Both the position numbers and the translations under genes were made by a program. Shown piece by piece: positions 1,174 to 29,027 of a stretch of 29,027 nt of DNA. The notes below the pieces were generated by a model. It had not been told where the DNA came from. It did not search any database and worked only from the letters and a program-made list of their open reading frames with translations. Each line of letters begins with the position of its first letter. Position 1 is the first letter of the stretch. The stretch is from the NCBI GenBank assembly GCA_041622975.1, contig JBFJXU010000001.1, positions 1-29,027 of the forward strand. The letters are read 5' to 3'. Origin of the DNA: Thermoplasmatota archaeon. GTDB lineage: Archaea; Thermoplasmatota; E2; JACPAO01; JAHFTW01.

Positions 1174-1199
1174 ACGGGCGCGACGGGATTCGAACCCGC
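1174..1199 (-). repeat. 26-bp exact direct repeat of the tRNA-Arg 3' end (partner 1274-1299)
   Basis: acgggcgcgacgggattcgaacccgc occurs at 1174-1199 and 1274-1299, exactly 100 bp apart; it covers the T arm, acceptor 3' strand, discriminator and 1 extra nt. Confidence 0.97.
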
Positions 1200-1253
1200 A
1201 GTACCCAGGGCGGCTGGCACCCTGGGGCAGACGGGCCGTCCCCGCCTACGCCC
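1175..1253 (-). ncRNA. Putative tRNA-like (mimic) structure
   Basis: Minus strand folds by hand into a 6-bp acceptor (GGGCGT/GCGCCC), an 8-bp bulged D-like arm, a 6-7-bp anticodon-like arm (CCAGGG/CCCTGG), a 5-nt variable region and an intact T arm. Confidence 0.5.
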
Positions 1254-1274
1254 TCCGGCTGCTGGCGCAGCCTA

Positions 1275-1349
1275 CGGGCGCGACGGGATTCGAACCCGCG
1301 ACGACTGGCTTAGGAGGCCAGAGCCTTATCCAGGCTAGACTACGCGCCC
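1275..1349 (-). tRNA. tRNA-Arg(CCT), 75 nt, no intron, CCA not encoded
   Basis: GGGCGCG acceptor, GTCT/AGGC D stem, CTGGC-CTCCTAA-GCCAG anticodon arm, GCGGG-TTCGAAT-CCCGT T arm, discriminator G. Confidence 0.97.
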
Positions 1350-1423
1350 GAGCGGGCCACTTGAGGGGGGTTCTTGGCCGTGCCGGCCGCCGCCGTTTTC
1401 CAAGGGCATGCCATGGCCGACTC

Positions 1424-3028
1424 GTGGACGCGCGTGTTGTGGGCTGGCTGGTTTTGCTAGCATGCCTGGCAGCCCCACCGGCGGCGGGGCAAGCCATTAT
1501 TGGAGTCGTTCCTGACTTGGACGACGGCGATGGCTGGGGCGTATGCTGCGACCTGGCAGGGTGGACCGTCACGGACGAGGAAACGACGTGGACCGTTCCT
1601 GCTGGCAGCGGGGCGGCGTGGGCCACCGGCAATTCATCCCAATGGCTCGCCCACGGGGGTCCGCCAGCAACTCACATCCCCGGCCTGCGGTTGAACAACC
1701 AAGGTGAAGCACTACGCCTAGTCAATCCAGCCGGCGAAGTGGTTCATGAGGTGGATTGGGCCGGTGCCGGGGCAGGCGGCTTTGCGCGCCTTTGGGTCCC
1801 CGGCGAAGTTGAACGCGTGCGGTGGCTCGGGCAATCGGACCTCGATCAACCCACGTGGCACATCGAAGGGGCAACGTTGTACCGGTCCCCCGACAATGCA
1901 TTCGAGGTCTTGACGGAACTGCTCAGGGCCGCGCAGGAACGTGTGGTGCTGCATGTGTATGGCCTACGCAGTCTTGCCTTGGGCGACGCCTTGGTTGCGG
2001 CCGCGGACCGTGTACCAGTCGCCGTACTAGTGGATGAGTCGCCCGTTGGAATGGACCGTTTGCAGCGTCACCAAACCGCATACAACTTGCAGCGCCTTGT
2101 GGACGCCGGCGCTGAGGTGGTGACTGCCGGAGACCGCTACCGCCACCACCACCTCAAGGTACTCGTAGTGGACGACAGGGTCGCCATCCAGTCAGAGAAT
2201 TGGGTAGAATCTGGCGTGCCCGAAGTGCCGACCACGGGCAACCGGGGTTGGGGGATTGTCCTCCCGCACCGGCCCGCCGCCGACTGGTTTGCCGCCTGGA
2301 TGGCCGAGGACCGCGCTGCATGGGACGCCGATTCGTTTGATTTGGCGTCCTTTGACCCCGGTTATGAGCCGCCAGCACGGTTTCCGCCCCGCACGGGCAC
2401 GTACCGCCCTGGGTCGGTGGAGCACATCATCGGACCGATGGAAGTTACGCCATTTGTAGCCCCAGACCACACCGTGAGTCCTGAACTCTATCAATTGGTA
2501 GCCGAGAGCGGACGCGCATGGGCTCAGCAGTTACAGATGCGCGAGCACGCCACGAATCGGCTCGGCTTGGACCTGGCCGACCCCTTTCTCTTGGCGTTCA
2601 CAGACGGTGCCCACGCACGTGATATCCGAGTCCATTTAGCGGCGCCATTCGGCCCTGATGATGAACGCAATCAGCAAGTGGTTCGGGCCATCCAGGCCGC
2701 CGGCGGTAATGCGCGGCTATGGGACCATCCAGACCTCGGCATCCTGCACAACAAGGCCGTCGTCCTGGATGATGGACTCATCTTGGGCAGCCTGAACGGC
2801 AACCATGCCAGTCGCTCGGAGAACCGCGAGGTGGGCCTCTACGTTCACTCCCAGGCTGCGGCCCAAACAGCGAGTCAGTGGTTTCTATCTGATTGGCAGC
2901 CAAGTCGGGACTGGGGCGCCATCGCTGATGACTTGGAAGCAATACCCGGGCCAGGCTTCCTGGCCGTCGCGGCTACCGCTATCTTTGCTATGCTAGTCAG
3001 ATGCAGGGAAGGCGCAGGGCGCCATTGA
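1424..3028 (+). CDS. Secreted phospholipase D-superfamily protein with a lamin-tail-like N-domain and PGF-CTERM-like anchor
   Basis: Two HKD motifs (HLKVLVVD, HNKAVVLD..GSLN); signal peptide after GTG 1424 (AT-rich box at 1396-1403); C-terminal IPGPGF + TM + basic residues. The ORF-track extension back to 1091 runs over the tRNA and is spurious. Confidence 0.85.
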   Translation: MDARVVGWLVLLACLAAPPAAGQAIIGVVPDLDDGDGWGVCCDLAGWTVTDEETTWTVPAGSGAAWATGNSSQWLAHGGPPATHIPGLRLNNQGEALRLVNPAGEVVHEVDWAGAGAGGFARLWVPGEVERVRWLGQSDLDQPTWHIEGATLYRSPDNAFEVLTELLRAAQERVVLHVYGLRSLALGDALVAAADRVPVAVLVDESPVGMDRLQRHQTAYNLQRLVDAGAEVVTAGDRYRHHHLKVLVVDDRVAIQSENWVESGVPEVPTTGNRGWGIVLPHRPAADWFAAWMAEDRAAWDADSFDLASFDPGYEPPARFPPRTGTYRPGSVEHIIGPMEVTPFVAPDHTVSPELYQLVAESGRAWAQQLQMREHATNRLGLDLADPFLLAFTDGAHARDIRVHLAAPFGPDDERNQQVVRAIQAAGGNARLWDHPDLGILHNKAVVLDDGLILGSLNGNHASRSENREVGLYVHSQAAAQTASQWFLSDWQPSRDWGAIADDLEAIPGPGFLAVAATAIFAMLVRCREGAGRH

Positions 3029-5693
3029 CATGCGTGCACGACTCAGCCACGGCATCTACGTGGATGCGCTCGAACATGAGGGGCTTGTCCTGGAAGTCCA
3101 CGTACATCTGCAGTTGGTCTTCAGCGTGGGCCGGGAACAGTGGTGTGCGCGGCCAGCCTTCGCCTTCGCCCAAGACCTGCGCCATCTGGACGGAATTCAT
3201 GTGGCCGGAGTTGCCGGGCGGGAGAACGTTGCGGCTGGCGGCCAAGGGGTCCGTGTCCATGAGGCCCCAGTCATAGAACGCCTGGAAACTAGGCCGGTTG
3301 GTCATGGGAATCTCGTAGGACGGCAGCGCGCCCAGGGCACTGAACTTGCTGATGTGGTTGGGGCGACCCTGCCAGTCTTCGGCCGCTAGGACGTCCGCCA
3401 TGGCTGCATTTGCTTGGTCTTGGCAACTCTCCACACCGGGCGTGGTGACGTCGTCGCACCAGGCGTGCCCGGTACCACCGGCCATGGCGTCGGCAAGTAC
3501 GCTGTGCTTGTTGCCCTCGGTGCCGTGGTCGGCGGCGTGGCCATCACTGTGGGCTAGGGGGCTCCAACTCAGGGACCTGGCGCCTGCGCCCAATTCATCG
3601 GCGTAGACTCGTTCCTGCATGGCGTCGCGCCACGCCTCGAAGAGGCCCATGCCATCAGGCATGGTGGTGGCGAACTTGCCGCCCCAGATGGGGACCCCGT
3701 TGTTGTCTGCGGCGTAGCCGCCATAGAAGAATCCAGTGTCCTTCCATTCAGCCAAGGCCGCTAGCGCCGCGGCCTCCTGGGCATCTAGCATGCCATCTGG
3801 GCCGTAGATGGCGGCCTTCATGATGGCATAGAATTCATCCCCGTATGGGTCGCTGGTGCTGGCTTGGAAGTGAATGTCACGCATGTCGGCGACCGTGAGG
3901 CCCGCCGGGCTCTTCTCGTCGATGCGTTCGAGAAGCAATTCCTCCATGAGTTCGGCGCGCTGCATGTTGCCCCATTTCTCCATGTTGTCACCGGTTGGGA
4001 ATCCCTTGGCCGGGTTGTTGTTCCAATTGACGGTGTACCCCTTGGGGGAGTCAATCATGTGGGGCAAATCGCTCCCGGTGAGCACTTGGGCCGGGTCTGT
4101 GTGGTCCCAGGTGTAGGAGGAGTCCCATCCGGGTGTTGGTAAGCGGCTGTCGAGGCGGGCGTCGCGCCTGGGTTGGACGCCAACGTGCAGGTAACCGATG
4201 CTGCCTTCCGCGCCGTCCTCGGCGATGTTGAAGTTGAAACTGAAGCGGAAGGTCTCCAGGAGATCTTGGATATCTGCAATGGAACGGGTTTGCCCAATCT
4301 GCAGCCACAGGATACCACTTCGTGCTTCATCACCACGGTAGGCGCGCTGGCTGGCAAACGCGTACTGGCCGTCGTCGCTGCGTGCCAGGACTGGTCCATG
4401 CACCGTGCGGCAGACGCGTTGCTCCACGATATCCACGTCCGGCGCACGGCCATCGGCCACCACGGCGAAGTCGGAGATTGCTGGCTTGACGTAGTGGGTC
4501 TCCGTGCGGCAGTCCATGTCCACGACTTCGCCATCCAGGTAGTATTGCTCGCCATTACCGGGGACGAGCCGTTCAACGACCATGTCCACTTGGTCGGAAC
4601 TGCCGCTTGTCACGGTCCAACTGTGCGTCGGGCCCCGGCCGATGATGACGCCGGGGGCACCAGCAACACCCATGCCGGTGGCTTCGAAGCCAGCGCCGTG
4701 CAGGGCCACTTCGTACGGAATCATGGGGGCAAAGTAGGCCATCTGCGGACCACCGTAGAGGATGTTCTCCCCATTGGCAGCAAACCGCTTGTCGATGACT
4801 TGGGCATTGGAGCCGAATTTGAGGGGGAAGCCCGCTGCAACAAGGGTCTCTTGGAGCCCCATGAAGTCATCCAGGCCCGTTGCTTGACTGGCTGCCATCG
4901 CCTCCTGTTGGGCAGGGTCCAGGGCGGACGGTTCGCTAAGGTCGTGGAATGACATGACTTGCGTGTAGTCCCATTTGTCAATGCCGTGGCCAGGGTTGAG
5001 GTCCACGGCGGCAATGGTAGTGTAAGTGGAGTCGCGCTGGCCGGGGACGAAGTCCTCGAACGCAGCGGCGCCTTGCTCGTCGCCCAGGAGCCCCTGCAGT
5101 TGGGCCAATAGAGCGGCATTGCGATGCTCAGCGCCGCCAGAGCCACGGCCGAAGATATCCAAGAGGTACTCGGCGATGGCGATTGTGTCACTCACGAGCC
5201 AGTCACGGGGCAGGACGCCGAAGGCGGCGTATTCACCCGGCAGTTTGCTGGGGTCAGTTCGGGTTTCCTCAATCCATGCGTTTACGCCGTCGGCGAACGC
5301 GTTGAATCCTTCCAGCCACATGGCGCCGTCAAGGCCGCCGTTTTCAGGCGTCATGGCACCAATTCGCTCAATGGTGGCTTGGCGTTCCTCTTCCGTGTAA
5401 AGTTCGCGGCGGGTTGCCAAGTCCATGTCGAGGCTGCCGTAGCCACCTGTGAGGCTGGCTAATTCGCCTTTGCCCACGTGGCGCAGGATTTCCATCTGTA
5501 CAAGGCGGTCTTGGGCTTGCGCGTAGCCGTTTGCCCAGAAGAGGCTGTACAGGTCGTCGGCCCAAATATGAGGGACTCCGTAGTCATCGCGGACGATGAT
5601 GGCGTCTGGGCTCGCGTCAACCATGTCGGCCGCGCCGGACAGGCCAGCGGGCACCAAGACGAACAGACTCAACAGTAATGGAACAGGTTTCAC
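2997..5693 (-). CDS. Penicillin acylase (Ntn-hydrolase) family protein, secreted
   Basis: IVRDDYGVPHIWA, GYAQAQDRL.QME..R...G.LA, autocleavage site G/SNA with N-terminal Ser, NWNN motif; signal peptide from GTG 5693. Confidence 0.93.
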   Translation of the reverse strand: MKPVPLLLSLFVLVPAGLSGAADMVDASPDAIIVRDDYGVPHIWADDLYSLFWANGYAQAQDRLVQMEILRHVGKGELASLTGGYGSLDMDLATRRELYTEEERQATIERIGAMTPENGGLDGAMWLEGFNAFADGVNAWIEETRTDPSKLPGEYAAFGVLPRDWLVSDTIAIAEYLLDIFGRGSGGAEHRNAALLAQLQGLLGDEQGAAAFEDFVPGQRDSTYTTIAAVDLNPGHGIDKWDYTQVMSFHDLSEPSALDPAQQEAMAASQATGLDDFMGLQETLVAAGFPLKFGSNAQVIDKRFAANGENILYGGPQMAYFAPMIPYEVALHGAGFEATGMGVAGAPGVIIGRGPTHSWTVTSGSSDQVDMVVERLVPGNGEQYYLDGEVVDMDCRTETHYVKPAISDFAVVADGRAPDVDIVEQRVCRTVHGPVLARSDDGQYAFASQRAYRGDEARSGILWLQIGQTRSIADIQDLLETFRFSFNFNIAEDGAEGSIGYLHVGVQPRRDARLDSRLPTPGWDSSYTWDHTDPAQVLTGSDLPHMIDSPKGYTVNWNNNPAKGFPTGDNMEKWGNMQRAELMEELLLERIDEKSPAGLTVADMRDIHFQASTSDPYGDEFYAIMKAAIYGPDGMLDAQEAAALAALAEWKDTGFFYGGYAADNNGVPIWGGKFATTMPDGMGLFEAWRDAMQERVYADELGAGARSLSWSPLAHSDGHAADHGTEGNKHSVLADAMAGGTGHAWCDDVTTPGVESCQDQANAAMADVLAAEDWQGRPNHISKFSALGALPSYEIPMTNRPSFQAFYDWGLMDTDPLAASRNVLPPGNSGHMNSVQMAQVLGEGEGWPRTPLFPAHAEDQLQMYVDFQDKPLMFERIHVDAVAESCTHVNGALRLPCI

Positions 5694-5816
5694 TTCTACA
5701 CACCCGAGGAGGCGACGGGGCGCGCCCCTTTTGGACCCTTGGGCGCGGGAATACCCCCTCCGCCCGGTGCCCATGCACATACCCTTTTTGATGAGGTGAC
5801 ACTCAACCTATACCTG

Positions 5817-6791
5817 ATGTTGGAGCCGATTTCCTGGGCCGCGTTGGCGGTCATCTTCGCGGCACTGGCCGCCGCCATCACCCGGCGTTTCCTTGCAGTC
5901 GGCTCATTGGTCATTGCAAACCTTGCCATCTTTGCCATGACGGCCCTCGGGCCGCGGATGCTTTCGCCCACGCAGCCCGGCGTGGTGCGCCCCGTCATCC
6001 ATGAGCAACTGGGCTTGCACGCCGACCAATTGGTGGCCGGCGAGCCCATGGCTTTCCTGAACCTGCTGACCAGCATGTTCGTACACGCTGACTTCTTCCA
6101 TTTCCTGGTCAACATGATTATCCTGTTGGCCTTCGCGTTGCCCTTCGAGGAGCGCATTGGCGCCCGCAAGTTCCTAGCCGTGTACGTCCTGTCCGGCCTA
6201 GTCGGCGCTGGCGTCCAAGTGGCCTTCGTTGCCGGCGCCCCCATCCTGATGATGGGCGCAAGTGCAGCTGTCTTCGGTGTCATCGGGGCCTTCGCCACCG
6301 CGTTCCCGCGCCAAGTCATCGCCATTCCCCTGCCCCTGCCCATCATGATTCTGGTTCGCATGCGCGTCGTGACCGGCGCGCTCATCTTTGGTGCCCTGCA
6401 AATCGTGATGATTACCTTTGCCGGGGCCAACAGCAACACCGCCTTTGAGGCCCACCTTGGTGGCCTCGGGGCAGGGCTGCTCCTCGGCCTCGCCGTGCGC
6501 GGCCCCACGGGGCAGGCGGCCAACAAAACCGTCGAAGTGGATTTCTCGGCGTTGGATGCCTTTGCAGCCGATGAGGGAACCAAGCACGCCTTGGAAGAGT
6601 TGCAGCGCAACCGGGACCTGCCCGACCTATGGGCCGCTTGGATGGAGCGCTTCTTCCGCACCGCCGAGTGCCCTCAGTGCCATGCCACTGTGATGCCTGA
6701 ACGTACCGGCCACGTTGTGTGCAGCCACGGCCACCGGTTCGACATCCGCATGGGGCACAAACTCACCCCGCCGCGGGCTGGCCACGTGTGA
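5817..6791 (+). CDS. Rhomboid intramembrane serine protease with C-terminal Zn-ribbon-like domain
   Basis: SMFVH...HF..NM, catalytic GASAA and AHLGG motifs; C-terminal CPQC...CSHGH; start inferred from a T-rich box at 5785-5791. Confidence 0.9.
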   Translation: MLEPISWAALAVIFAALAAAITRRFLAVGSLVIANLAIFAMTALGPRMLSPTQPGVVRPVIHEQLGLHADQLVAGEPMAFLNLLTSMFVHADFFHFLVNMIILLAFALPFEERIGARKFLAVYVLSGLVGAGVQVAFVAGAPILMMGASAAVFGVIGAFATAFPRQVIAIPLPLPIMILVRMRVVTGALIFGALQIVMITFAGANSNTAFEAHLGGLGAGLLLGLAVRGPTGQAANKTVEVDFSALDAFAADEGTKHALEELQRNRDLPDLWAAWMERFFRTAECPQCHATVMPERTGHVVCSHGHRFDIRMGHKLTPPRAGHV

Positions 6792-6816
6792 GTCCGGAGG
6801 CAGGCCAATTGGCAGG

Positions 6817-7947
6817 CTAGACGGAGCCGCTGCGGTCGTAGATGCTGACCAGGCGAACCTCGCCGGTCACCTCAATGCCGCCAGGTATGCCAGATGGCGG
6901 CAAGGGCGTACTCCGCAACGTCCAATTGCCTGCCTGATAGGGAACTTCGGTGAGGACGTCCACGGTGGCGTTGCCCGTGTCCCCTATGTCGACGGTTACG
7001 ACGGCCTCGTCGTTCGGGTCGAGCAATTCGATGCGGTGGACGCCATTGCCCCCCGTTTGCTCGGCCGTGATGGCAACGCCTAGGGTGTCGTAGGGGCCAT
7101 CATTGCCATCTTGGATGTCGAAGGATTCGGTGACAATTTCAACGGAATTGATGGGGAACACCTTGTCCTTCTGGCCACGCAAGAAGAACGCTTCACCTTG
7201 GTAGCCCGTGTCAATTTCTTCGAGGGTCATTTCCACGGTCGTCTCGGGCGTGGTGACGGATAGGTCCGTGAACCACTGCGCATGGAGGGAGTACGCGATG
7301 CCGAGCGACGCGTCGGGGGCCGTTCCGGTGATGCGCCAGCCAGGCATGGTGGTGCCGGCCGCGTAGTCATCCAGGGGACCACCCACAATCGGCAAGGCGG
7401 CCTCCTTGGCACTCATGGCCCAGTCGGTGGCGAAGAAGCGTGTTTTCCAGGTGAGGCCATCACAGAGCGGGAAGTGGAACATGTCCGCGTGGTCGCCCGA
7501 CTCGTGCGGGCTGTAGAGGGCTTGATGCACGCGTCCGATCATGGGGTTGGTCGAGTAGAGTGCGTGGCGCAACGCTTCCTCTCGAGTCGGCGTGCCCACC
7601 ATGTAGTGCTGGCCATTGTCCTGTGAATCGTAGTAGACCAGGCGGGTGGTGCCAAGGTCTTCTCCGTCAATGATTACGCGGTACAACCAGGACTGGCCGA
7701 ACACCCACGGCCTGCCTTCGAGGTCCGGGGCGTGCTCCCGTTCGGCGCCACGAGCCACGCAGGGATGGTTCGGGTCTTCGAACTCCTCAATCGTGGGCAG
7801 CGGCGGCGTGGAAGTGTTGTTACCAGGCGGTGGCTGGACCGGGTCGGGTGGCCCGTCGTCGCCGCTGCCACCGTCACCGCCGCCGAAGCAGCCTGCTAAG
7901 GCTGTGACGAGTACCAGCCACGTGGCCATGAGGGTCGTCTTGTGCAC
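6817..7947 (-). CDS. Hypothetical lipoprotein
   Basis: Lipobox LAGC followed by a Gly/Asp/Pro-rich linker and beta-rich domains; start GTG 7947 (alternative ATG 7929). Confidence 0.8.
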   Translation of the reverse strand: MHKTTLMATWLVLVTALAGCFGGGDGGSGDDGPPDPVQPPPGNNTSTPPLPTIEEFEDPNHPCVARGAEREHAPDLEGRPWVFGQSWLYRVIIDGEDLGTTRLVYYDSQDNGQHYMVGTPTREEALRHALYSTNPMIGRVHQALYSPHESGDHADMFHFPLCDGLTWKTRFFATDWAMSAKEAALPIVGGPLDDYAAGTTMPGWRITGTAPDASLGIAYSLHAQWFTDLSVTTPETTVEMTLEEIDTGYQGEAFFLRGQKDKVFPINSVEIVTESFDIQDGNDGPYDTLGVAITAEQTGGNGVHRIELLDPNDEAVVTVDIGDTGNATVDVLTEVPYQAGNWTLRSTPLPPSGIPGGIEVTGEVRLVSIYDRSGSV

Positions 7948-8022
7948 GGCGTTCACGACGCCCAACCCGCACCATAATGGTTCTGTGAACAGCACAAAGC
8001 CGACGTCGGGGGCCCCGCAGCC

Positions 8023-8028
8023 TTTCAA
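8023..8028 (+). promoter_or_regulatory. TATA-like box for the gamma-CA gene (leaderless)
   Basis: TTTCAA at -29..-24 of ATG 8052; the same spacing recurs at other genes. Confidence 0.55.
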
Positions 8029-8051
8029 GGAGCCCCCAACTCCCCCGCACC

Positions 8052-8597
8052 ATGACGGAAGCAAAGGCCGGTGGCGACACCGCAGTGCATCCAACCATCC
8101 ACCCCACGGCCGTGCTGGCTCCCGGCGCGCAAGTGATCGGCGATGTGACCGTCGAAGCAGACTGCTTCATTGGTCCCAATGCGGTGCTGCGTGGCGACAT
8201 TGAGCCCATCGTTGTGCGTCGCGGCGCCAACGTCCAGGACTGCGTCGTGGTGCACACCCACCACGGGACCCCCGTGGAGATTGGCTCGGACGTTTCCATC
8301 GGCCACGGCGCCATTGTCCACGGGGCCACCATCGAGCCATCTGCCCTCATCGGCATGAATGCCGTGGTACTTGATGGCGCCGTGGTCGGTGAAGCCGCCG
8401 TCGTGGGTGCGCTGGCTCTTGTCCCGGCAGGATTCAAGGTGCCGCCAGCCAGCCTCGCCGTGGGAGCCCCGTGTAAGATCATCAAGGAGAACGACGACCG
8501 CATGCGCCAAATGGCGACCCAGAACGGGAAACGATACCATCAATACCGCGACGACCACTCGAAGGGCCGTTGGGGGTCCGTGACCGGCCCGACTTGA
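8052..8597 (+). CDS. Gamma-class carbonic anhydrase family protein (YrdA/PaaY/CaiE-like)
   Basis: Hexapeptide repeats; LRGD..I.V...ANVQD..VVH and IGHGAIVHG metal ligands. Confidence 0.93.
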   Translation: MTEAKAGGDTAVHPTIHPTAVLAPGAQVIGDVTVEADCFIGPNAVLRGDIEPIVVRRGANVQDCVVVHTHHGTPVEIGSDVSIGHGAIVHGATIEPSALIGMNAVVLDGAVVGEAAVVGALALVPAGFKVPPASLAVGAPCKIIKENDDRMRQMATQNGKRYHQYRDDHSKGRWGSVTGPT

Positions 8598-8600
8598 CGG

Positions 8601-9251: not shown

Positions 9252-9338
9252 CGGACAGGAAATTGCCCGTGCAACGCCATCGGCCACCGGCGCGGTTCGA
9301 CTGACAACAGCCAAGACCTCTGGCGCCCCGTCCCCAGT

Positions 9339-20872: not shown

Positions 20873-21928
20873 ATGCAGTGGAAACCCACGGTAGCCGTCG
20901 TTTGCCTTATGATGGCAGCCATCGGAGTTGGTGCGGATGAGGACCACGAATCTGGTCGGTTCGATTGGTCTGACGACGGATTTGAGTACGAGATTTCTTA
21001 CGAGTCCGAGAGCAACGGCACTGAGACCGAGGAAGAATTCGAAGTGGAGTGGGACGCCGAAGACGCTGAACTGACCATCCAGATGGAGTCAGAGCAAGAA
21101 ACGGAAGACCGTGAAACGGAACAGGAGGAAAGCCTCGACATCGAGTTCTACTTCCTGGTCGAGTACAACGACACCGACGGTGACGGCGCATTCGTCCCCG
21201 GCAACGATACGGCCTACGGTTTCTGGGCCATCGGCGACGATCGCTGCGACGACGATTGCGACGACGAGGATGGCGAAGAGGCTCAGTCCACGTCCCCGTA
21301 CGGCGATTACCGCGGCGCCATGAACTGGCGCTCCATCAACCCGGGCAGCGACTACTCGACTCACACCGACGAGAATGGTACCATGCACCGTGTCGAGGTC
21401 CGGGCAGACTTTGGTCCCCAGGACGCACCGTCTGTGTTCGGCTTCAATTTCAAGATCTACGAGTACAACGCTGAGGCAGATGGCAGCAACGTTGCGCGTA
21501 CGCAGGTCAAGTTCGACATCGTCATGGAATTGGATGGGTCAGCGTACGCCCACGAGGGCTCCCAGATGTCAGTCGTCCACGTGGTGGAATCCGAATTCGA
21601 GTTGGAAGACGAGTTCGATGACGACGTGGAGGAGGGCACGCCGGCTGATGAGGAGGACTCGGTGGCAAGCGGCGCAGGCGGACGCATGGAATACCGCTGG
21701 CGCAACAACGCCACTGTGGATGACCGGGACACGCCCGTCGGTAGCCATGTTTCCGAAACGGAGACCGAGTCCAGCGACGACGAGGACGCCGACGAAGAAG
21801 AACAGACACGCCTCATCACGTTCTCCTACGAGCGCGGCTCGAGCATCCTGCATGACCCCATCGCGGGTTCCCGTGGCGCCCCCTCGCTCTTGGAACAGGC
21901 CTTGGATCTACTTGCAGCACTGTTGTAA
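20873..21928 (+). CDS. Highly acidic secreted protein
   Basis: Signal peptide; very Asp/Glu-rich; DTDGDG Ca2+-loop-like motif; C-terminal ILHDP.G. Confidence 0.8.
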   Translation: MQWKPTVAVVCLMMAAIGVGADEDHESGRFDWSDDGFEYEISYESESNGTETEEEFEVEWDAEDAELTIQMESEQETEDRETEQEESLDIEFYFLVEYNDTDGDGAFVPGNDTAYGFWAIGDDRCDDDCDDEDGEEAQSTSPYGDYRGAMNWRSINPGSDYSTHTDENGTMHRVEVRADFGPQDAPSVFGFNFKIYEYNAEADGSNVARTQVKFDIVMELDGSAYAHEGSQMSVVHVVESEFELEDEFDDDVEEGTPADEEDSVASGAGGRMEYRWRNNATVDDRDTPVGSHVSETETESSDDEDADEEEQTRLITFSYERGSSILHDPIAGSRGAPSLLEQALDLLAALL

Positions 21929-22082
21929 TCGCCCGCTTGCCTAGTGGCTGATTTCCTTCTTCCCTCTACCCTGTTTTGACGCGGACGGCGGGGGCGATTG
22001 CAGTGCTCACGCTGGCCCCCTAGCATCCCCGCCGTGGTGGGAGACATTCACACGATAGTTGCGTGATGCCGACTAGCAGGGC

Positions 22083-22985
22083 TCACGCCGCTACGGGGGT
22101 GGCAGATTCCCGGATTGGTGCCGTACGTGCCCACATCCATGCCAGGGCACCACCAGTGGCAAACATGACGAGGGAGTAGAACGCCGGGCTCAAGGCAGCG
22201 GTGGCAGAGTCGAGTTGCGTGGTGGCAAGGACGATGCCGAAGGTGCCGTTTTGGAAGCCCACTTCGATGACGATGCTGCGTCGCCGGGCGCCGTCGGTCA
22301 GCCGACCAAGCAACCAACCGGTGCCCATGGCGGCCAAGTTGAGGGCCAATGCGGCGGGAACGGTGAGTGCGGCCTTTTCCCAGAAACCGTCCCGGTTCTG
22401 GAAGATGGCGGCTGCCACGAGGAGCGCTAGGAAGACCACGCCACCCAGGCGGAACGGTTTGTCAGCCGCCAGGGCGAAGCCAGGCCAGCGGCGGGCAACG
22501 AGGATACCCACCAAGACTGGGATGGCGATGACGACCAAAGCAAGCCCGGCAACGTCGGCGAAGGTCACGTTGATGGCGACGGCGTCGCCGTACAGAAGGT
22601 CCGTAGCGCCAAAGAGGACCAGGGGTGTGATGAGTACGGCACTGATGCTGGTCACAGCCGTGAGGACAATACTGAGCGCAGTCTCGCCGCGGCACAGGTG
22701 CGCCAGAAGGTTGCTTGTTGCTCCGCCGGGAAGGGCACCAAGGAGCAAGAACCCAATGGCGATCTCTCGGTCCATGCCAGTAGGGTGGAACAGGACCACC
22801 ACGCCGATGGCCAGGAGCGGCAGGGCTACCAGTTGGCCGAGTAGGCCCAACGCCAAGGCCTTGGGTTTGACGGTAACGTCCTTGAATGCCCTGGCAGGGG
22901 TCGCTAGGCCCATTCCGAACATCAGGACGGCCAGAATTAGGGGCAGCAAGACGTCGGTCACGACGCTGGTTTCGAGTTCCGCCAT
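22083..22985 (-). CDS. Bile acid:sodium symporter (BASS/ASBT) family transporter
   Basis: MFGMGL, Q...P, PGG..SN, G...LS..LT..TS, E.GFQNG motifs; start ATG 22985. Confidence 0.92.
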   Translation of the reverse strand: MAELETSVVTDVLLPLILAVLMFGMGLATPARAFKDVTVKPKALALGLLGQLVALPLLAIGVVVLFHPTGMDREIAIGFLLLGALPGGATSNLLAHLCRGETALSIVLTAVTSISAVLITPLVLFGATDLLYGDAVAINVTFADVAGLALVVIAIPVLVGILVARRWPGFALAADKPFRLGGVVFLALLVAAAIFQNRDGFWEKAALTVPAALALNLAAMGTGWLLGRLTDGARRRSIVIEVGFQNGTFGIVLATTQLDSATAALSPAFYSLVMFATGGALAWMWARTAPIRESATPVAA

Positions 22986-23063
22986 AACGGGCGATGGGGG
23001 CGGGCTTTGAAAACTGGATGCTGGCGGCAAGGCCATGGGCACAGGTGCCCCTTGGGTGGTGGC

Positions 23064-23069
23064 TTAAGT
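23064..23069 (+). promoter_or_regulatory. TATA-like box for the ABC operon
   Basis: TTAAGT at -29..-24 of GTG 23093. Confidence 0.55.
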
Positions 23070-23092
23070 GGGCCGCCACAGCAAGTTGTCAC

Positions 23093-23926
23093 GTGTTACG
23101 AGCCCGGGCGCTGTCCAAGCACTACGGTGACGTGATTGCCTTGTCAGACGTGGACCTCCATATCCCTGCGGGATTCATCCTTGGGTTGGTTGGCAACAAC
23201 GGCGCCGGCAAGACGACGGCAATCAAGGCGTGCGCGGGCCTGCTTGAGCCCACGTCGGGGTCCGTTCGAGTCGGCGGCGAAGATCCCACGCATGCCCCGG
23301 TTCGGCAAAAGATTGGCTTCCTGCCGGAGGACAGCCCTGTTTACGATGACCTGTCGCCCCGCGCATACCTGCGCTATTTTGGACGACTCTACGGGGTGAA
23401 GAGTGACACGGAGGCCTTGTTGGACCGCTTGCGGCTCGACGAGCCCTTCCGCGATCGGCCATTAGGGCAGTTATCGAAGGGCAGCAGACGCAAGACGAGC
23501 CTCGCGCGATGCTTGCTACATGACCCAGACCTCATCATTCTAGACGAACCAGCAAGCGGCCTTGACCCGGCAACCCGGAGAGCCGTGGATGACCTACTGT
23601 TGGAACTGCGCGCGGAGGGCAAGGCCATCCTGCTCTCGGCGCACGACTTGGATGAGGTAGAGCGCTTGAGTGACCACATCGTGGTCCTTCACGAGGGTCG
23701 CATCGCCACCGAAGGCGACACGGCGACCCTCCGCGCCAAGGCAGGCCCCACAACGTACATTGTGCGCGCCGAGGGACCGTTTGCCGGGAGCCACCCAGAC
23801 GGCACCGACCACGTGGCAGAAGTCAGTGATTGGCCCAGCGTTGAGGCTTTACTCTCCACGCTTGAAGTCCAGGTTCTTGACGTGACGGCTCGACCCCCAC
23901 GATTGGCGGACGTGTTGGCCGCATGA
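23093..23926 (+). CDS. ABC transporter ATP-binding protein
   Basis: Walker A GNNGAGKTT, signature LSKG, Walker B LIILDEP, H-loop SAH; GTG 23093 with TTAAGT at -29. Confidence 0.95.
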   Translation: MLRARALSKHYGDVIALSDVDLHIPAGFILGLVGNNGAGKTTAIKACAGLLEPTSGSVRVGGEDPTHAPVRQKIGFLPEDSPVYDDLSPRAYLRYFGRLYGVKSDTEALLDRLRLDEPFRDRPLGQLSKGSRRKTSLARCLLHDPDLIILDEPASGLDPATRRAVDDLLLELRAEGKAILLSAHDLDEVERLSDHIVVLHEGRIATEGDTATLRAKAGPTTYIVRAEGPFAGSHPDGTDHVAEVSDWPSVEALLSTLEVQVLDVTARPPRLADVLAA

Positions 23927-25536
23927 GGCGGGCTTGGGCTTTGGCTGCCGCCGAGGCCCGACGCGCAGCCGTACGCATTGACCGCCGCGTAATTGCCGGA
24001 GTTCTCGTGGTGGCCGGCTTGTTGGCCACCGTCGCTACTGTTACGCCGCTCACGCCGCCGTCTCCGGAGGACGGGCTATACCTAGTGCGCGATGAGGGTA
24101 GCCCCCTGCGGGACGCTGTTGCCGCATCGGAGCGCTTTCGGTTCACCGAGGAGAACGCCCACGTAGTCATCAACGGCGACGAGGTGCGCTACGACCCAAA
24201 CAACGCGGCAAGCCGGGAAGCCGCGGCCGTACTGGAAGTGGCGGTGCGCCATTGGCTGGACCAAGAATTGCGCGGCGAGGCCGACCAAGCCGCGGCATTC
24301 CCATTGGAGGTGCGCCTAGTGCAAGCCGCCCGAGCGCCAGCCTTACCAGATGGCGGCCCCGGCTCGGGGGAAGGCAAAGTTGACCCGAACCCAGGCGCCG
24401 GCGACGTTGATGTAGCCGATGACGTGGACCCCCAAGGTGTTGTACGCCCCGTTGCCCCGGACCGACTCGAGCCACCGTTCCCGGTGCAGAGTCTGCTGCT
24501 CACGTTTGCTTACCTCATCCCAGCAAGCCTCGTGACGCAATTGCACGCAGGCAATCTGCACAGTGAGCGCCAAGGTCGTGCTACCGTAATTCTGGCCGGG
24601 CCGGTCACACCAGCCGCTTTCCTCGTGGGTAAGGTCCTGCCGTGGAGCATTCTGCTCGGATTGCTGGCAATCTTGGTCACGTGGGTCATTGGTGCCGGAT
24701 TGTGGGCCCTTGCCGGCGCTGCGGTCGCCATGTTTTTCCTGCTTGCCATGGCCACATGGCTGGCACTCATTGCCCGCACCACCCGCGAATTGACGCTCCT
24801 GCAAGTAGCAGGGAGCACCTTGCTCAATGTATTCCTGTTCCTGCCGCCCCTCTTCCCCGGCTTGGATGCGGTGGCATTCCTAAGCCCAATTCACTTGGTG
24901 GCCTTGGATTTGCAAGGGGCTTCAGTGCCCCTGGGTGGGGCGCTGTACGCTACGGTGCCCATGTTACTTGCCACCGTCAGCCTAGCCGCCCTTTCCACGG
25001 GGCTGGCCCGAGACGAAGTGCTCACCACCGCGCAACCACCCGTGCCCCAAACCATTCAGGCCCTAGAAGCCGTGACGCGCCGACCCTGGCAATTGTTCCT
25101 CGCTGCAGTGCTGACCATACCGTTTGTGCTGGCCACGGAAGCAACGGCGGTCGCCATGGGTGCCGTGTTCTTCTTGTCGGCCCCCGCCCTCATCCTGGTG
25201 GTCGTTGCCGTGGTTGAAGAGACGGCCAAAGGGCTCCCCATTTGGGCGCGTCGCGGTGACGGCGGCATCCTAGTCGGAACGGGGTTTTTCGTCGGCGAGA
25301 AGGCCGCGCTGCTCTTGACGCTGGTAGGATTCTCTGCGTTGCCGTTCGGCGGCGAAGTTCTGCTGCTCCTTGGCATCGGTGCGGGCTTGCTGTTATTCCT
25401 ACCACTCGCACTTCACGCAGGCACGGCATGGGTGCAAGGATTCAGCACGAAGCGCGGCCACGCACGCCTTGGCTGGGTGCTCGCCGTGGTCATCCACCTC
25501 GCCTACGATTTGGCAATCCTGGAGGTCCTGTTGTGA
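23923..25536 (+). CDS. ABC-2 type permease fused to a C-terminal PrsW-family intramembrane metalloprotease domain
   Basis: Permease core (SE......L.GP....FL.GK); C-terminal EETAK, GTGFFVGE, LH and HLAYD PrsW motifs; ATGA overlap with the ATPase. Confidence 0.8.
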   Translation: MRRAWALAAAEARRAAVRIDRRVIAGVLVVAGLLATVATVTPLTPPSPEDGLYLVRDEGSPLRDAVAASERFRFTEENAHVVINGDEVRYDPNNAASREAAAVLEVAVRHWLDQELRGEADQAAAFPLEVRLVQAARAPALPDGGPGSGEGKVDPNPGAGDVDVADDVDPQGVVRPVAPDRLEPPFPVQSLLLTFAYLIPASLVTQLHAGNLHSERQGRATVILAGPVTPAAFLVGKVLPWSILLGLLAILVTWVIGAGLWALAGAAVAMFFLLAMATWLALIARTTRELTLLQVAGSTLLNVFLFLPPLFPGLDAVAFLSPIHLVALDLQGASVPLGGALYATVPMLLATVSLAALSTGLARDEVLTTAQPPVPQTIQALEAVTRRPWQLFLAAVLTIPFVLATEATAVAMGAVFFLSAPALILVVVAVVEETAKGLPIWARRGDGGILVGTGFFVGEKAALLLTLVGFSALPFGGEVLLLLGIGAGLLLFLPLALHAGTAWVQGFSTKRGHARLGWVLAVVIHLAYDLAILEVLL

Positions 25537-26579
25537 TGCGCCACATCATCCTCAAAGAACTCCGGGACATGACGCGCGAAAAGACCATTGTCACGGCATT
25601 CCTCGTGCAGGCTTTGCTCGCGGGGTTCAGCGCCCTTCTCCTGACCGGCCTTACGGCCCTCCATAGCCCCGAAGCAGTAGACCAGGTGCCGCCCGCCGAG
25701 GTCGCCTTCGTCGGGGCCACGGACGGTTCCCGCGGCTTCGGCACATACCTTGACGGCACCGGCAACCTGGACATCGCCACCATGACCGCCACGGATGCCC
25801 TGACCGCGTTCCGCGAGGGTCGTGTGGACATGGTAGTCCAGGAAGCCCAAGTGGACGGCCGACAGCGCGTCAACATCATCCTGCCCGCAGGAGATATCCG
25901 AGCGACCTTGTGGACGACCCAGGCCAAAGAATTGCTCCTCGAATACGAACAAGACCTCCGCGTGGAACGCCAAGGCCGACTCGCGCAGCAAATTACGTAC
26001 GTGGAAACGGGGCAGGAGATCGAGACGCATGGTTTCGTCTACGGCACACTACTACCAATCCTCACGATTGCCCCCGTATTCCTAGGCGGCGCCATCGCCG
26101 GTGACGCTATCGGCCAGGAAGCGCGTAGCCGTACGCTGCTGCTGCTGCGGGCAGCGCCCATTACCGCTCATAGACTGGTAGCCGCCAAGTTGACTGTGCC
26201 CCTCCTCCTCGTGCCCGTGCAAGTGGGCCTTTGGCTGGGCCTCATGGCGCTCAACGGCTTCCCATCCCAGAACGCCCACTGGATTCTTCTCTACGCCACC
26301 GCCATGGGCGCCGTCATCGCCGCCGTGAGCACCCTCACGGCCAGCCTCCTCCCAGGCGAAGCGGCCAGTCAAGCAGTCACCACGCTAGGTGCACTCGTCC
26401 TTGCAGCCGTGAGCCTCATTGGCCCGCGCGACCCACTCAACACGATCGCGTTGCTAGCCACGGGTGTACCTGACCACTTGGCTTGGTGGACGCTCGGCGC
26501 CACGGTGACCCTGGCAATTTCAGCGTTCCTTGCAGCAGGTTTCGTAACCACGCGGCGGCTGCTCAACGACCAAGTATAA
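25536..26579 (+). CDS. ABC-2 type permease
   Basis: I.KELRD..RE, GDAI.QE...RTL.LL.AAP......AK motifs; SD GGAGGT; overlaps the upstream stop. Confidence 0.85.
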   Translation: MRHIILKELRDMTREKTIVTAFLVQALLAGFSALLLTGLTALHSPEAVDQVPPAEVAFVGATDGSRGFGTYLDGTGNLDIATMTATDALTAFREGRVDMVVQEAQVDGRQRVNIILPAGDIRATLWTTQAKELLLEYEQDLRVERQGRLAQQITYVETGQEIETHGFVYGTLLPILTIAPVFLGGAIAGDAIGQEARSRTLLLLRAAPITAHRLVAAKLTVPLLLVPVQVGLWLGLMALNGFPSQNAHWILLYATAMGAVIAAVSTLTASLLPGEAASQAVTTLGALVLAAVSLIGPRDPLNTIALLATGVPDHLAWWTLGATVTLAISAFLAAGFVTTRRLLNDQV

Positions 26580-26641
26580 CCAAGTTAAGCAGTAACTGCC
26601 GGCACCATTTGTTTCTTACAGTCTGGTGTATTGCACCCCGC

Positions 26642-26884
26642 ATGGAGGCCTTGTTCCTCGTTGATGCAGCACCCGGGTTCGAGAACAGCGTACAAAGCGC
26701 TCTCGAAGGCAAGGTCAAGAACATCGTCCGCGCCAAGATCCGCAATAATGATTTCATTGTCGCCATGGAATTACCCGATGAATCGGCCGTAGAGGATGCT
26801 CTAAGGCACGATCTGTGGGTGAGTGGCGTCAAAGGAGTGGAACGCGTCGAGCCGGCCCCGGAAATCTTGGCCCACCTGTCCTGA
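26642..26884 (+). CDS. Stand-alone Lrp/AsnC ligand-binding (RAM)-like domain protein
   Basis: 80 aa with a beta-alpha-beta-beta-alpha-beta pattern (ALFLV...DFIV.ME.PD...V....GVKGVE); no HTH. Confidence 0.55.
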   Translation: MEALFLVDAAPGFENSVQSALEGKVKNIVRAKIRNNDFIVAMELPDESAVEDALRHDLWVSGVKGVERVEPAPEILAHLS

Positions 26885-26922
26885 AACCCTTTGTCCAGGA
26901 CCGGCCCGACGGTCGGTCAAGG

Positions 26923-27138
26923 TCAGGCGTGGAACAACAGGTGTAGGCCGAATCGGAGGGCAGCCTGATTGACCAGGTCTTCCTCACTGCGCACCCCGGC
27001 TAGAATGGCCGACGCCTTACCCTGCTGCCAGTGAAGGCTCCACAGGCCTTCCGTCTGGGCGACGCGAACGTCGCCGGCAGTGTTCATCCATGCACCCTGT
27101 CGGATGCGGCTCATGGGTTCGACGCGATGCTTCAACAT
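26923..27138 (-). CDS. Small hypothetical protein (71 aa, MLKHRVEP...)
   Basis: ATG 27138 with a TTAAA box about 30 nt upstream; the ORF-track extension to 27330 overlaps trkH and is unlikely. Confidence 0.55.
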   Translation of the reverse strand: MLKHRVEPMSRIRQGAWMNTAGDVRVAQTEGLWSLHWQQGKASAILAGVRSEEDLVNQAALRFGLHLLFHA

Positions 27139-27283
27139 CAAGTAGACAGCCGCTGGAAGGGGGTTTAAGGATTGATGGTCAACCGTTGTCTGCAACAGGA
27201 GTGAACAAGGCGGATTGAATGCGATTCTCGCCTTATTCGCCTGACCGCAACCAATGAATAGGGCCGCAGCCCAGCGGGATTCG

Positions 27284-28804
27284 ATGCTCCACCCGCGGCG
27301 CGTCGTGGGAGCCATCGGCTCCATCCTCACCTTGTACAGCGCGGCGTTCCTGCTGCCCGCCGTAGTAGCAGTCGCCTACGACGCGCGTGAGACAAACATC
27401 GGGGCCGTGCAGGTTCCGTTGAATGCGCTCATCTTCCTTCTGTGCGCCCTCTTGACATTCATGTTAGGCGCTGTACTGCGCCTATCTGCAGCCAACACCA
27501 ACCCCGAAAACATGGCCGACCGAGAGGCGTACCTCACCGTCGGCATTGGATGGATTGCATTGTGCCTCGTCACAGCAGTCCCATACGTCCTGACAGGCAC
27601 ACTCACCTCACCGGTTGACGCGTTCTTTGAATCCATGAGTGGATTGACTACCACGGGCGCAACCGTGATCGGCGGGCCCTTGGAGGACGTCAGTCCATCC
27701 GTCCACATGTGGCGAGCCTTCACCCAATACATCGGAGGAATGGGCATCATTGTCTTGTCCGTGGCAATCCTAGCCAAGTTGAGTCAGGGAGGCATGCAGA
27801 TGCTACAAGCAGAGGTACCCGGCCCCACCATGAGCCGAGTCGCTCCCCGCGTGGCCCAAACGGCGCGCATCATGTGGGGCGTTTACCTTGCCTTATCCGC
27901 CGTCCTGTTCGCGATCCTCACCGGGATTCTGGCCTTCCGCCACGGCATGAACGTCCCGACCGCAGCGTATGAAGGGCTCCTCCATACATTCACGACCCTT
28001 TCCACGGGTGGTTTCAGCAACCACACCGCTAGCATCGCCTACTTCGATGACCCCCTTATCGAGGGCATCATCATAGGCTTCATCCTGCTAGCCGGGACAA
28101 ATTTCTCACTACTCCTTCTCGCGTCCCACGGAGAATGGAGAACGCTCCTCCGCGACGGCGAATGGCGCCTCTACATGACCAACTTCGTGTTGGTTTCGGG
28201 CGTCATGGCCATCATCCTGACACGGGCCGGCATGGAAGCCATGCAAGCCATCCGTGACGGTGCATTCGTCGTTGCATCCATGATGACGAGTACGGGATTC
28301 GGCACGGCCGACTTCGACCAATGGCCGGACGTGGCACGACTCATCATCGTTTTTGCCATGGTCGCAGGGGGAATGGCAGGCTCCACCGCCGGGGGGCTCA
28401 AGATGGTCCGTGTCCTCTTGTTGTGGAAAATTGTCAGGCGCGAATTCGTACGCATCCGACACCCCCAAGCCATCGTCCCCTTGCGCATTGGCGGCCGCAC
28501 TGTACCCTCCCGCACCATCATGGCCACTGTGGCGTTGTTCTTCTCCTACGTCGCCCTCTGGCTCCTTGGCACCGTCCTGCTCGAGATTGTGGACCCCGCA
28601 TTCGCACGCGTGGAGGATGCCGCCTCGGCGAGCCTGAGCGCTTTGTCCAACGTAGGCCCCGGTCTTGGCGTCGTTGGCCCGACCCAATCCTACGCGGGCT
28701 TGACCATGGCGAGCAAAGTGGTCCTTAGCGCCGAGATGTGGTTCGGCCGACTGGAAATCTTCACCGCCCTGCTCATCTTCCTGCCCGAAACCTGGCGCCA
28801 TTAG
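27284..28804 (+). CDS. trkH: Trk potassium uptake permease TrkH
   Basis: Pore loops FESMSGLTTTGA, STGGFS, STGFG, SNVGPGLG; C-terminal GRLEI; start ATG 27284 (alternative 27254). Confidence 0.93.
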   Translation: MLHPRRVVGAIGSILTLYSAAFLLPAVVAVAYDARETNIGAVQVPLNALIFLLCALLTFMLGAVLRLSAANTNPENMADREAYLTVGIGWIALCLVTAVPYVLTGTLTSPVDAFFESMSGLTTTGATVIGGPLEDVSPSVHMWRAFTQYIGGMGIIVLSVAILAKLSQGGMQMLQAEVPGPTMSRVAPRVAQTARIMWGVYLALSAVLFAILTGILAFRHGMNVPTAAYEGLLHTFTTLSTGGFSNHTASIAYFDDPLIEGIIIGFILLAGTNFSLLLLASHGEWRTLLRDGEWRLYMTNFVLVSGVMAIILTRAGMEAMQAIRDGAFVVASMMTSTGFGTADFDQWPDVARLIIVFAMVAGGMAGSTAGGLKMVRVLLLWKIVRREFVRIRHPQAIVPLRIGGRTVPSRTIMATVALFFSYVALWLLGTVLLEIVDPAFARVEDAASASLSALSNVGPGLGVVGPTQSYAGLTMASKVVLSAEMWFGRLEIFTALLIFLPETWRH

Positions 28805-28847
28805 GGGGAGGATCTCCCTCACTGAACCCCTCGCACGGCTCGCGCTT

Positions 28848-28867
28848 CAGTGCTCCTGGCGGGATTT
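28848..28867 (-). repeat. 20-bp (19/20) direct repeat of the tRNA-Glu 3' end (partner 28976-28995)
   Basis: cagtgctcctgGcgggattt versus cagtgctcctgCcgggattt, 128 bp apart, including 3 nt beyond the discriminator. Confidence 0.9.
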
Positions 28868-28873
28868 TCGAGC

Positions 28874-28976
28874 GTCGTCGCACAGCGACGACCGAGGGGA
28901 GCAGGTCCACAGGACCTGCGACAGAACCCGGGACGGGTTCAAATCCGCCGTAGCGGCGCGTGGCGGTACGCCACGC
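28874..28976. repeat. Cluster of five perfect inverted repeats with 3-nt loops
   Basis: gtcgtcgc-aca-gcgacgac; gcaggtcc-aca-ggacctgc; gaacccg-gga-cgggttc; cgccg-tag-cggcg; gcgtggcg-gta-cgccacgc. Confidence 0.95.
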
Positions 28977-28978
28977 AG

Positions 28979-29027
28979 TGCTCCTGCCGGGATTTGAACC
29001 CGGGTCGCAGGAGTGAGAGTCCTGAAT
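28979..29027 (-). tRNA. tRNA-Glu(CTC), 3' portion (5' end lies beyond the window), CCA not encoded
   Basis: CAGGA-CTCTCAC-TCCTG anticodon arm, CCGGG-TTCAAAT-CCCGG T arm, CAGGAGC-A acceptor end. Confidence 0.92.

Follow-up and report, generated by a model that had tools for sequence, protein, structure and literature searches.

The classic identity block of tRNA-targeting integrases runs from the T-loop region to the end of the tRNA. In the tyrT trailer of Escherichia coli, 178-bp units each begin with the last 19 nt of tRNA-Tyr and probably arose by unequal recombination or slippage, and the attP site of CTX phage is a folded single strand bearing two inverted dif-like sites ~90 nt apart. Hoelzle et al. 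reportedly found in 2012 that tRNA-like elements of Haloferax are processed by RNase P and tRNase Z. Partial tRNA copies left by 9- to 23-kb integrations have been described in archaea (PMC9897764). Short templated inverted duplications by fold-back at breaks are documented in yeast, where the experimentally induced events mostly measure 5 to 34 bp and the complex ones comprise two inverted pieces derived from one locus (bioRxiv 10.1101/2024.03.07.583931). Here, we analyze a stretch of 29,027 nt (the window), which is contig C1 (JBFJXU010000001.1) of assembly GCA_041622975.1 from a marine Thermoplasmatota archaeon. Its two tRNA genes, tRNA-Arg(CCT) and tRNA-Glu(CTC), are each followed by a second copy of their own 3' end (the echo) after a short, hairpin-rich filler (the cassette). 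Partial tRNA copies are usually read as footprints of kb-scale mobile elements; in this order of abundant marine archaea, they occur in a miniature and highly recurrent form.

The arrangement shares some traits with each described system. Like integrase att duplications (PMC9897764), it consists of a direct repeat from the T-loop to the tRNA end, with one intact tRNA and a displaced end downstream. Unlike them, it measures 65 to 130 bp rather than kilobases, has no cargo and no integrase that we could find, varies in repeat length, contains inverted tRNA copies, and has a mirror-image form at tRNA 5' ends. Tandem trailer units that include the tRNA 3' end are shared with tyrT, but that case is confined to one locus in one bacterium, whereas many tRNAs across an archaeal order are involved here, with shorter, hairpin-rich units, inverted copies, and 5' counterparts. 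Yeast fold-back insertions also leave short inverted copies beside a break, a footprint like that in the tRNA-Glu cassette; the archaeal insertions, in contrast, are 65 to 130 bp long, fixed in genomes, and focused on tRNA ends. With CTX attP, the modules share an inverted and a direct target copy (here 50 to 60 nt apart), a potential hairpin that rebuilds the target duplex, and tandem arrays; here, however, no phage genome lies between the copies and the target differs by locus. The tRNA-like elements of Haloferax and of the mascRNA type place an acceptor/T-like helix by the transcript end, as the echo modules may also do, a possible route to leaderless mRNA or small RNA, but the mimic in the window scores below every tRNA model threshold and folds as an extended hairpin, not a cloverleaf. 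Finally, miniature inverted-repeat transposable elements (MITEs), repetitive extragenic palindromes (REP) and their mosaic arrays (BIME), and casposon or CRISPR repeat duplication share small palindromic intergenic units, sometimes in arrays, and (in the Cas1 case) long target duplications. In contrast to these, searches of the order returned no Cas1 or Y1/RAYT protein, target duplications are not of fixed length, the inverted "ends" come from the target itself, and this genome holds no multicopy family. Literature on tRNA fragments and repeats in archaea, and on Poseidoniales and their viruses, yielded nothing describing echo cassettes. None of the compared systems unites a ~100-bp scale and high order-wide frequency with both 3' and 5' forms, inverted copies that derive from the target, and the lack of a recombinase.

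This genome (G000; the compared relatives are designated G001, G002, and so on) comes from marine metagenomes. The assembly comprises 2.04 Mb in 303 contigs, with 62% GC and 86% completeness, and carries as archaeal markers a 312-aa tRNA-splicing endonuclease and an archaeal RNase P RNA. tRNAs were called with ARAGORN and Rfam RF00005, and the G000 scan covered all 37 ARAGORN tRNAs plus the truncated tRNA-Glu. The features of the two window loci are as follows.

511..1173, minus strand: lipoprotein-like open reading frame (ORF) from the ORF list, with a TTG start 1 nt past the echo and, as judged by eye, a signal peptide that includes a lipobox-like LPGC
1174..1199, minus strand: 3' echo of tRNA-Arg (T2), an exact copy that abuts the downstream ORF and is probably the displaced original tRNA end
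1200..1273, minus strand: tRNA-Arg cassette, 74 nt, with a linker hairpin (1257-1272), an echo-complementary stretch (~1240-1253), and a terminal 7-bp hairpin (1204-1226) in the minimum free energy (MFE) fold
1274..1299, minus strand: repeat copy T1 in the working tRNA-Arg (T-arm, 3' acceptor strand, discriminator plus 1 nt), an exact 26-nt match to 1174-1199
1275..1349, minus strand: intact tRNA-Arg(CCT) without encoded CCA (ARAGORN; Rfam RF00005, 58.6 bits)
28848..28867, minus strand: 3' echo of tRNA-Glu (T2), a 19/20 match
28868..28975, minus strand: tRNA-Glu cassette, 108 nt, folding into five back-to-back perfect hairpins with 3-nt loops and holding an inverted copy of its own T-arm (28934-28946)
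28976..28995, minus strand: repeat copy T1 in tRNA-Glu (3' part of the T-loop to 3 nt beyond the discriminator), a 19/20 match to 28848-28867
28979..29027, minus strand: tRNA-Glu(CTC), 3' two-thirds, cut at the contig end (Rfam RF00005, 33.5 bits, model positions 23-71; anticodon read)

At the tRNA-Arg locus, the repeat is identical over 26/26 nt with a period of 100. In the MFE fold, 13 bp of the cassette pair with the acceptor and T-stem 3' strand of the echo, and the trailer has a folding energy of -65.2 kcal/mol (z = -3.9). Two Logan contigs, which are independent per-run assemblies from two runs, match the junctions without differences: X3/17 corresponds to positions 1063-1242 (echo/cassette) and X1/3 to 1218-1391 (cassette/tRNA). 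Because independent contigs bridge each junction, the tRNA-Arg arrangement is not a product of the assembly of this metagenome-assembled genome (MAG).

The truncated tRNA at the other locus was assigned to Glu because its anticodon loop reads CTC. The repeat matches at 19/20 positions with a period of 128, the trailer fold has a z score of -4.5, and nowhere else in the 2.04-Mb assembly are perfect short-loop hairpins clustered as densely as in this cassette. BLAST retrieved an inverted self-match between cassette and tRNA (28934-29002), and the fold shows further inverted tRNA pieces. The k-mer support for this cassette was partial (0.47 of 17 sampled words in run X3). No co-oriented gene lies downstream of the echo. 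In a genome-wide comparison, both cassettes proved to be single copy, each matching only itself, and mutually unrelated. The original prediction of a 3'-end echo with hairpin filler behind both tRNAs is therefore confirmed, as is its statement that the two cassettes share no obvious sequence, which extends to everything else in the genome. It had also named a failure of reads to span the cassettes as a sign of artifact; the tRNA-Arg junctions are spanned by the Logan contigs.

The direction of the change can be read from relatives. An orthologue of the window lipoprotein ORF in G010 (35% identity, E = 1e-29, N-termini aligned) starts 2 nt past tRNA-Arg(CCT), with no cassette between them. Likewise, an alpha/beta-hydrolase ORF starts 5 nt past tRNA-Arg(TCT) in G018 and G043, both without a cassette, and in G003 starts 2 nt past a 23-nt echo that follows a 75-nt cassette. 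The echo thus holds the ancestral tRNA-end/ORF junction, because at these two independent loci the same ORFs abut the tRNA itself in cassette-less relatives; the comparison shows that the cassette is an insertion.

Turnover of these insertions is evident at several tRNAs. Within a single genus, tRNA-Arg(TCT) carries two units, one, or none depending on the species, and tRNA-Arg(CCT) is followed by two or three echo units in G021 and G013. Behind tRNA-Glu(CTC), the sister species G001 has a 29-nt echo with a period of 97 and a filler unrelated to that of the window; other versions occur in G002, G010, and G011, and none in G009, G013, G015, and G006 (four other genera). No kb-scale island was found at the orthologous sites in relatives, which were empty or held another small cassette. 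When JGI metagenome contigs were queried for exact matches to a 22-nt cassette word, in order to find population variants or empty sites, none was returned. We also note that ORFs start only 1 to 5 nt past a tRNA or echo discriminator in several genomes (window 1171-1175, L011:1575-1580, L124:1493-1501, and L034:4277-4282). The spacing suggests cotranscription and leaderless mRNAs made by tRNase Z as a regular feature of the lineage.

Across G000, a downstream 3' echo was found at 3 of ~38 tRNAs (Arg-CCT, Glu-CTC, and Asn); that of tRNA-Asn comprises the last 11 nt plus 14 nt of trailer, has a period of 65, and lies at a contig end. Three other tRNAs (Leu-CAA, Ala-CGC, and Thr-TGT) display the mirror image, an upstream 5' echo. 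These are exact copies of 3 to 6 leader bases plus tRNA positions 1 to 26, placed ~125 to 133 bp upstream, followed by a 52- to 65-nt hairpin-rich insert at the 26/27 junction and then a diverged anticodon arm. The upstream copy at Thr-TGT has a precisely deleted T-arm and retains the 3' acceptor strand, and tRNA-Met in G005 has a 5' echo with the same layout as the three in G000. A bulge-helix-bulge (BHB) intron was considered for the inserts and rejected, as no motif restores the tRNA junction; the best BHB-like geometry lies 4 nt off the required junction, as judged by a script not validated on a known intron. Three further tRNAs (Glu-TTC, Ser-CGA, and Gly-TCC) are followed by tandem repeats of 71 to 74 bp that start 3 to 9 nt past the tRNA. 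A motif resembling GCGAGC/AGCGAAG is common to these trailer repeats and to the linkers of relatives. The loci, in coordinates of the respective G000 contigs, are listed below.

C105:4511-4643, C194:1229-1354, C226:2486-2609: 5' echo loci (L015 to L017)
C98:1-130, C139:808-918, C178:2397-2556: trailer tandem repeats of Glu(TTC), Ser(CGA), and Gly(TCC)

For background, 0.7% of 1,500 random 300-nt G000 windows contained a direct repeat with a score of ≥16 and a period of 30 to 200. Repeats of that strength occurred in 5/35 trailers and at 3 tRNA loci among 36 leaders. The program TRF missed the trailer repeats because their copy number is below 1.8. A scan with all tRNAs found no partial copy far from its own tRNA in G000.

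For comparison across genomes, a single threshold of 14 nt was applied to 171 tRNAs in five genomes, excluding flanks that contain real neighboring tRNAs.

G005 (same family, genus g5, 10 contigs): 44 tRNAs, 9 with a 3' echo downstream and 4 with a 5' echo upstream
G026 (other family of the order): 32 tRNAs, 5 with a 3' echo downstream and 0 with a 5' echo upstream
G007 (same family): 34 tRNAs, 1 with a 3' echo downstream and 1 with a 5' echo upstream
G000 (this genome): 31 tRNAs, 1 with a 3' echo downstream (plus 2 at contig ends) and 3 with a 5' echo upstream
G039 (class-level outgroup): 30 tRNAs, 0 with a 3' echo and 0 with a 5' echo

In this set, all 16 of the 3' echoes lie downstream and all 8 of the 5' echoes lie upstream; copies on the wrong side (5' part downstream or 3' part upstream) numbered 0. 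The echo habit is order-wide in this branch of the Thermoplasmatota and not peculiar to G000. From 3% to 30% of the tRNA genes in a genome have their outward-facing end copied ~100 bp away, with hairpin filler between. The expectation of a genome-wide feature thus stands in the sense that the architecture recurs throughout the order, but within G000 itself it covers only the three 3' echoes, the three 5' echoes, and the three trailer tandems. Periods range from 64 to 147 bp and are mostly 97 to 120. Echo length varies from 11 to 37 nt, the start point from -32 to -11, and the overshoot past the tRNA from 1 to 37 nt. Relatives also hold tandem arrays of 2 to 3 units (G021, G005, G024, and G002). 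In G007, intact tRNA genes are themselves repeated in tandem (Gly-GCC twice with a 105-bp period, C4:142563-142738; Asp three times at ~190 to 200 bp, C2:252292-252753); the 105-bp spacing shows that duplication on that length scale occurs there.

In tRNA sense, the common module consists of the tRNA end, a linker of ~20 nt (in many cases a small hairpin bearing a GCGAGC-like motif), an inverted copy, one or two inner hairpins, and the direct echo. The inverted copy corresponds to the tRNA acceptor and T-stem 3' strand and pairs with the echo over 13 to 17 bp; a strong inverted copy is present in only about one-third of modules. A permissive Rfam search assigned no family to the window cassette or to the module of genus g5.

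Membership in known families was assessed trait by trait. The direct repeat of the tRNA 3' end expected of an integrase island is present, but an integrase and kb-scale cargo are not, the inserts being 74 and 108 nt. The original prediction noted no integrase in the window, and this holds for the whole assembly (86% complete), in which no PF00589 match was found. Tyrosine recombinases do occur in 22/30 relatives, some beside tRNA-Arg genes; around the tRNA-adjacent integrases of G018, G036, G030, G003, and G005, however, no clear island bounded by an att-matched distal repeat was found. Cas1 or casposon activity was considered and discarded, as PF01867 was confined to three class-level outgroups, with no match in G000 or among the 24 order genomes searched; IS200/IS605 and REP-RAYT systems were set aside because the Y1 HUH transposase (PF01797) was likewise not detected in 24 genomes of the order. 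As for MITEs, G000 has no multicopy family and no fixed-length target duplication, and the inverted segment complements the host tRNA rather than being shared among copies, so there are no element-borne terminal inverted repeats. Among tRNA-like families (Rfam clan CL00001), the best match of the tRNA-Arg cassette and echo was tRNA-Sec over 1176-1253, which scored 18 bits where 47 are required (E = 0.42). The 13-bp cassette/echo stem could serve as an acceptor/T-like helix, although in its most stable fold the sequence forms an extended hairpin with no T-loop, not a cloverleaf. The tandem unit includes the tRNA 3' end as in tyrT, with one extra copy at each of the window loci.

What has to be explained is a duplication with insertion polarity and strict sidedness, its recurrence and turnover, cassettes unique to their loci, and the lack of any recombinase found. 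The best reading, which we adopt tentatively and with somewhat less than even confidence, is that fold-back or template-switch repair at the ends of tRNAs has repeatedly produced duplicative insertions. Each event places 65 to 130 bp between a tRNA body and the end it had before, so that the 3' end is duplicated in DNA; the working tRNA keeps the fresh copy, and the old end (the echo) stays joined to the downstream sequence. Such insertions have recurred independently at tRNA gene ends throughout the order. For the window cassettes, the maker would be break repair or replication template switching at the tRNA end: copying by a folded-back nascent strand would produce the inverted tRNA pieces and perfect triloop hairpins, a switch back would produce the direct copy, and only products with one intact tRNA would survive. 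We infer this mechanism from the form of its products. Repair or template switching, which was not among the options of the original prediction, is favored for the window because echoes vary, some repeats exclude the tRNA, and the filler is unique to its locus and contains inverted tRNA pieces and triloop hairpins. Variable length, start point, and overshoot, together with repeats that exclude the tRNA, do not fit the fixed stagger of a transposase. The restriction of 3' copies to the downstream side and of 5' copies to the upstream side would follow from selection, which keeps one intact tRNA and, where a gene abuts, the old junction. A secondary use at the RNA level also seems possible, as the modeled hairpin of inverted copy and echo resembles the acceptor/T helix recognized by RNase P and tRNase Z. 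If repair at fragile tRNA ends is the true origin, these loci form a natural record of archaeal fold-back and template-switch mutagenesis and a source of new structured RNAs.

Several points weigh against this reading. A recombinase may have been missed because the assembly is fragmented and 86% complete. The exact identity of echo and tRNA end beside diverged inverted copies requires either recency or gene conversion. Narrow clustering of periods (64 to 130 bp) and a recurring layout could equally mean a designed element or selection on structure, and the same layout recurs across families despite unrelated sequences. In genus g5, a 64-nt element made up of the two inner hairpins is conserved, with 90 to 97% identity across different tRNAs and species. 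We built a covariance model of this element (R1); in its 36 hits, 97.2% of cells were paired, compared with 68.7% after shuffling and 33 to 44% with partners slid, in an alignment fitted to the model, which favors structure. Compensatory change was seen in 14/16 pairs, a tandem G.A/G.A motif is invariant and strand specific, and G.U outnumbers A.C by 18 to 5. These features are more in line with an element that spreads or is under selection than with random filler from repair, and R1 is a candidate new structured RNA.

R1 numbers 5 to 21 copies in most g5 genomes and is sparse in the other genera of the family (loci L139-L168 and others, e.g., L115:1635-1811 and L134:2146-2478). In three genomes, 30/53 hits follow a tRNA on the same strand at a distance of no more than 500 nt; 21/140 tRNAs, of many identities, are followed in this way. 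An orphan pair occurs at the 3' end of an acyl-CoA dehydrogenase gene (L138:5950-6450, G014:C7, minus strand), where the last 11 codons, the stop codon, and the linker are repeated with a 123-bp period. In each unit, 13 nt of the coding sequence recur in inverted orientation, and the most distal copy encodes a different C terminus. A covariance search (E ≤ 0.01) found no R1 in G000, in the sister G001, or outside the order. The window cassettes were also considered as members of the g5 element and rejected, since the R1 model did not match in G000 or G001 and a sequence pattern allowing 3 mismatches gave no hit either.

These g5 data bear most directly on a reading in which miniature nonautonomous elements, mobilized in trans, target gene 3' ends (mostly those of tRNAs), with the window cassettes as old and diverged members. 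The agent would most plausibly be a tyrosine recombinase whose substrate is a single strand folded so that inverted copy and echo rebuild the target duplex, much like CTX attP. Multicopy R1 behind tRNAs of many identities, presence and absence at the same tRNA among species, common tandem arrays, the acyl-CoA dehydrogenase pair with its duplicated last codons, and the tyrosine recombinases of relatives all argue for it. Against this, R1 is missing from G000 and G001 and the G000 cassettes are unique; each copy bears the end of its own host gene, so each move would need a new target copy; echo length is not fixed; and no att-matched integrase island was found. In addition, a 100-bp circle is a poor recombination substrate. 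We consider this reading rather unlikely but a live alternative. The ultraminimal elements proposed in the original prediction are accordingly supported by multicopy R1 in the sister genus g5 but not in G000. A broader formulation, to which we would give the same limited credence, is an undescribed class of target-copying hairpin modules of 65 to 130 nt at gene 3' ends, nearly always those of tRNAs. Inverted and direct end copies, in the transcript or in a single strand, would fold into an acceptor/T-helix mimic; the modules would build up tandem arrays and, in one genus or more, would have spread between loci as a conserved two-hairpin core without a recognizable transposase. Their roles might be RNA processing or insulation, or service as folded single-strand recombination sites, and the two in the window would belong to the class as independent or degenerate cases. 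If the modules are indeed mobile or functional, they would be a new kind of element that copies the end of its target and a concrete case of tRNase Z/RNase P punctuation yielding leaderless mRNAs.

That the modules function as tRNA-like processing signals is, in our view, unlikely. Putative RNase P and tRNase Z cuts at the hairpin ends would separate the tRNA upstream from a small structured RNA and leave the mRNA downstream leaderless, and selection would keep the echo identical. The cassette/echo stem (13 bp in the window, 13 to 17 bp in relatives), ORF starts 1 to 2 nt past the echo discriminator at two independent loci where the tRNA abuts the same ORFs in relatives, and the pairing, compensatory change, invariant G.A/G.A, and G.U preference of R1 are consistent with such a role. 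The stem and the ORF position lend circumstantial support to the trailer-processing option of the original prediction. However, sister species carry unrelated cassettes at a given tRNA and many relatives carry none there, strong inverted copies are confined to about a third of modules, and the G.U excess in outer stems is not significant (15 versus 6 A.C, P = 0.08, symmetric scoring). Moreover, echoes run 1 to 37 nt past the discriminator, which points to DNA copying, the tRNA-Glu echo has no co-oriented gene after it, and the mimic fails the tRNA models. Miniature elements and processing modules both stay in contention, and neither need exclude a repair origin. Scars of kb-scale integrative elements, in which an integrase duplicated the tRNA 3' end and deletions later removed almost the whole island, are improbable. 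Echoes do span the T-loop vicinity to the tRNA end, and nested partial copies of differing lengths follow tRNA-Phe in G005 and tRNA-Gly in G018, but periods are clustered rather than widely spread, orthologous sites hold no island, G000 has neither a distant echo nor a detectable integrase, cassettes hold inverted copies of the local tRNA, and 5' echoes and tRNA-excluding trailer repeats do not fit. The suggestion of island-deletion scars is therefore not supported. We give almost no weight to an assembly or binning artifact of a fragmented MAG; with 303 contigs, several do end in such repeats (C1 in tRNA-Glu, C98, and C274), but the tRNA-Arg junctions are bridged independently, the 26-nt repeat is shorter than usual assembly k-mers, and the same architecture occurs in well-assembled relatives of 10 to 30 contigs. 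The reading of repair by fold-back or template switching remains the one we prefer.

Contigs of G000 break inside tRNAs or trailer repeats at C1:29027, C98:1, C274:1606, C144:5190-5239, and C170:4353-4376, and pieces of the same trailers recur at other contig ends; unit copy numbers are lower bounds because of these breaks. In practice, echo repeats break assemblies at tRNA genes and can yield spurious pseudo-tRNA calls in MAGs. Two atypical calls were noted among the tRNAs. A 94-nt ARAGORN "tRNA-Val(AAC)" in G000 (C115:1555-1648) looks like a false positive, with no convincing intron geometry found, and in a class-level relative (G034:C107:7412-7528) a tRNA-Arg match falls in two halves ~40 nt apart and is probably an intron-containing tRNA. 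Elsewhere in the window, the following were noted.

25428-26579: ABC-2 permease domain, inside the region 23093-26579
27254..28804, plus strand: TrkH-family cation transporter gene (Pfam PF02386, E = 2e-65), convergent with tRNA-Glu

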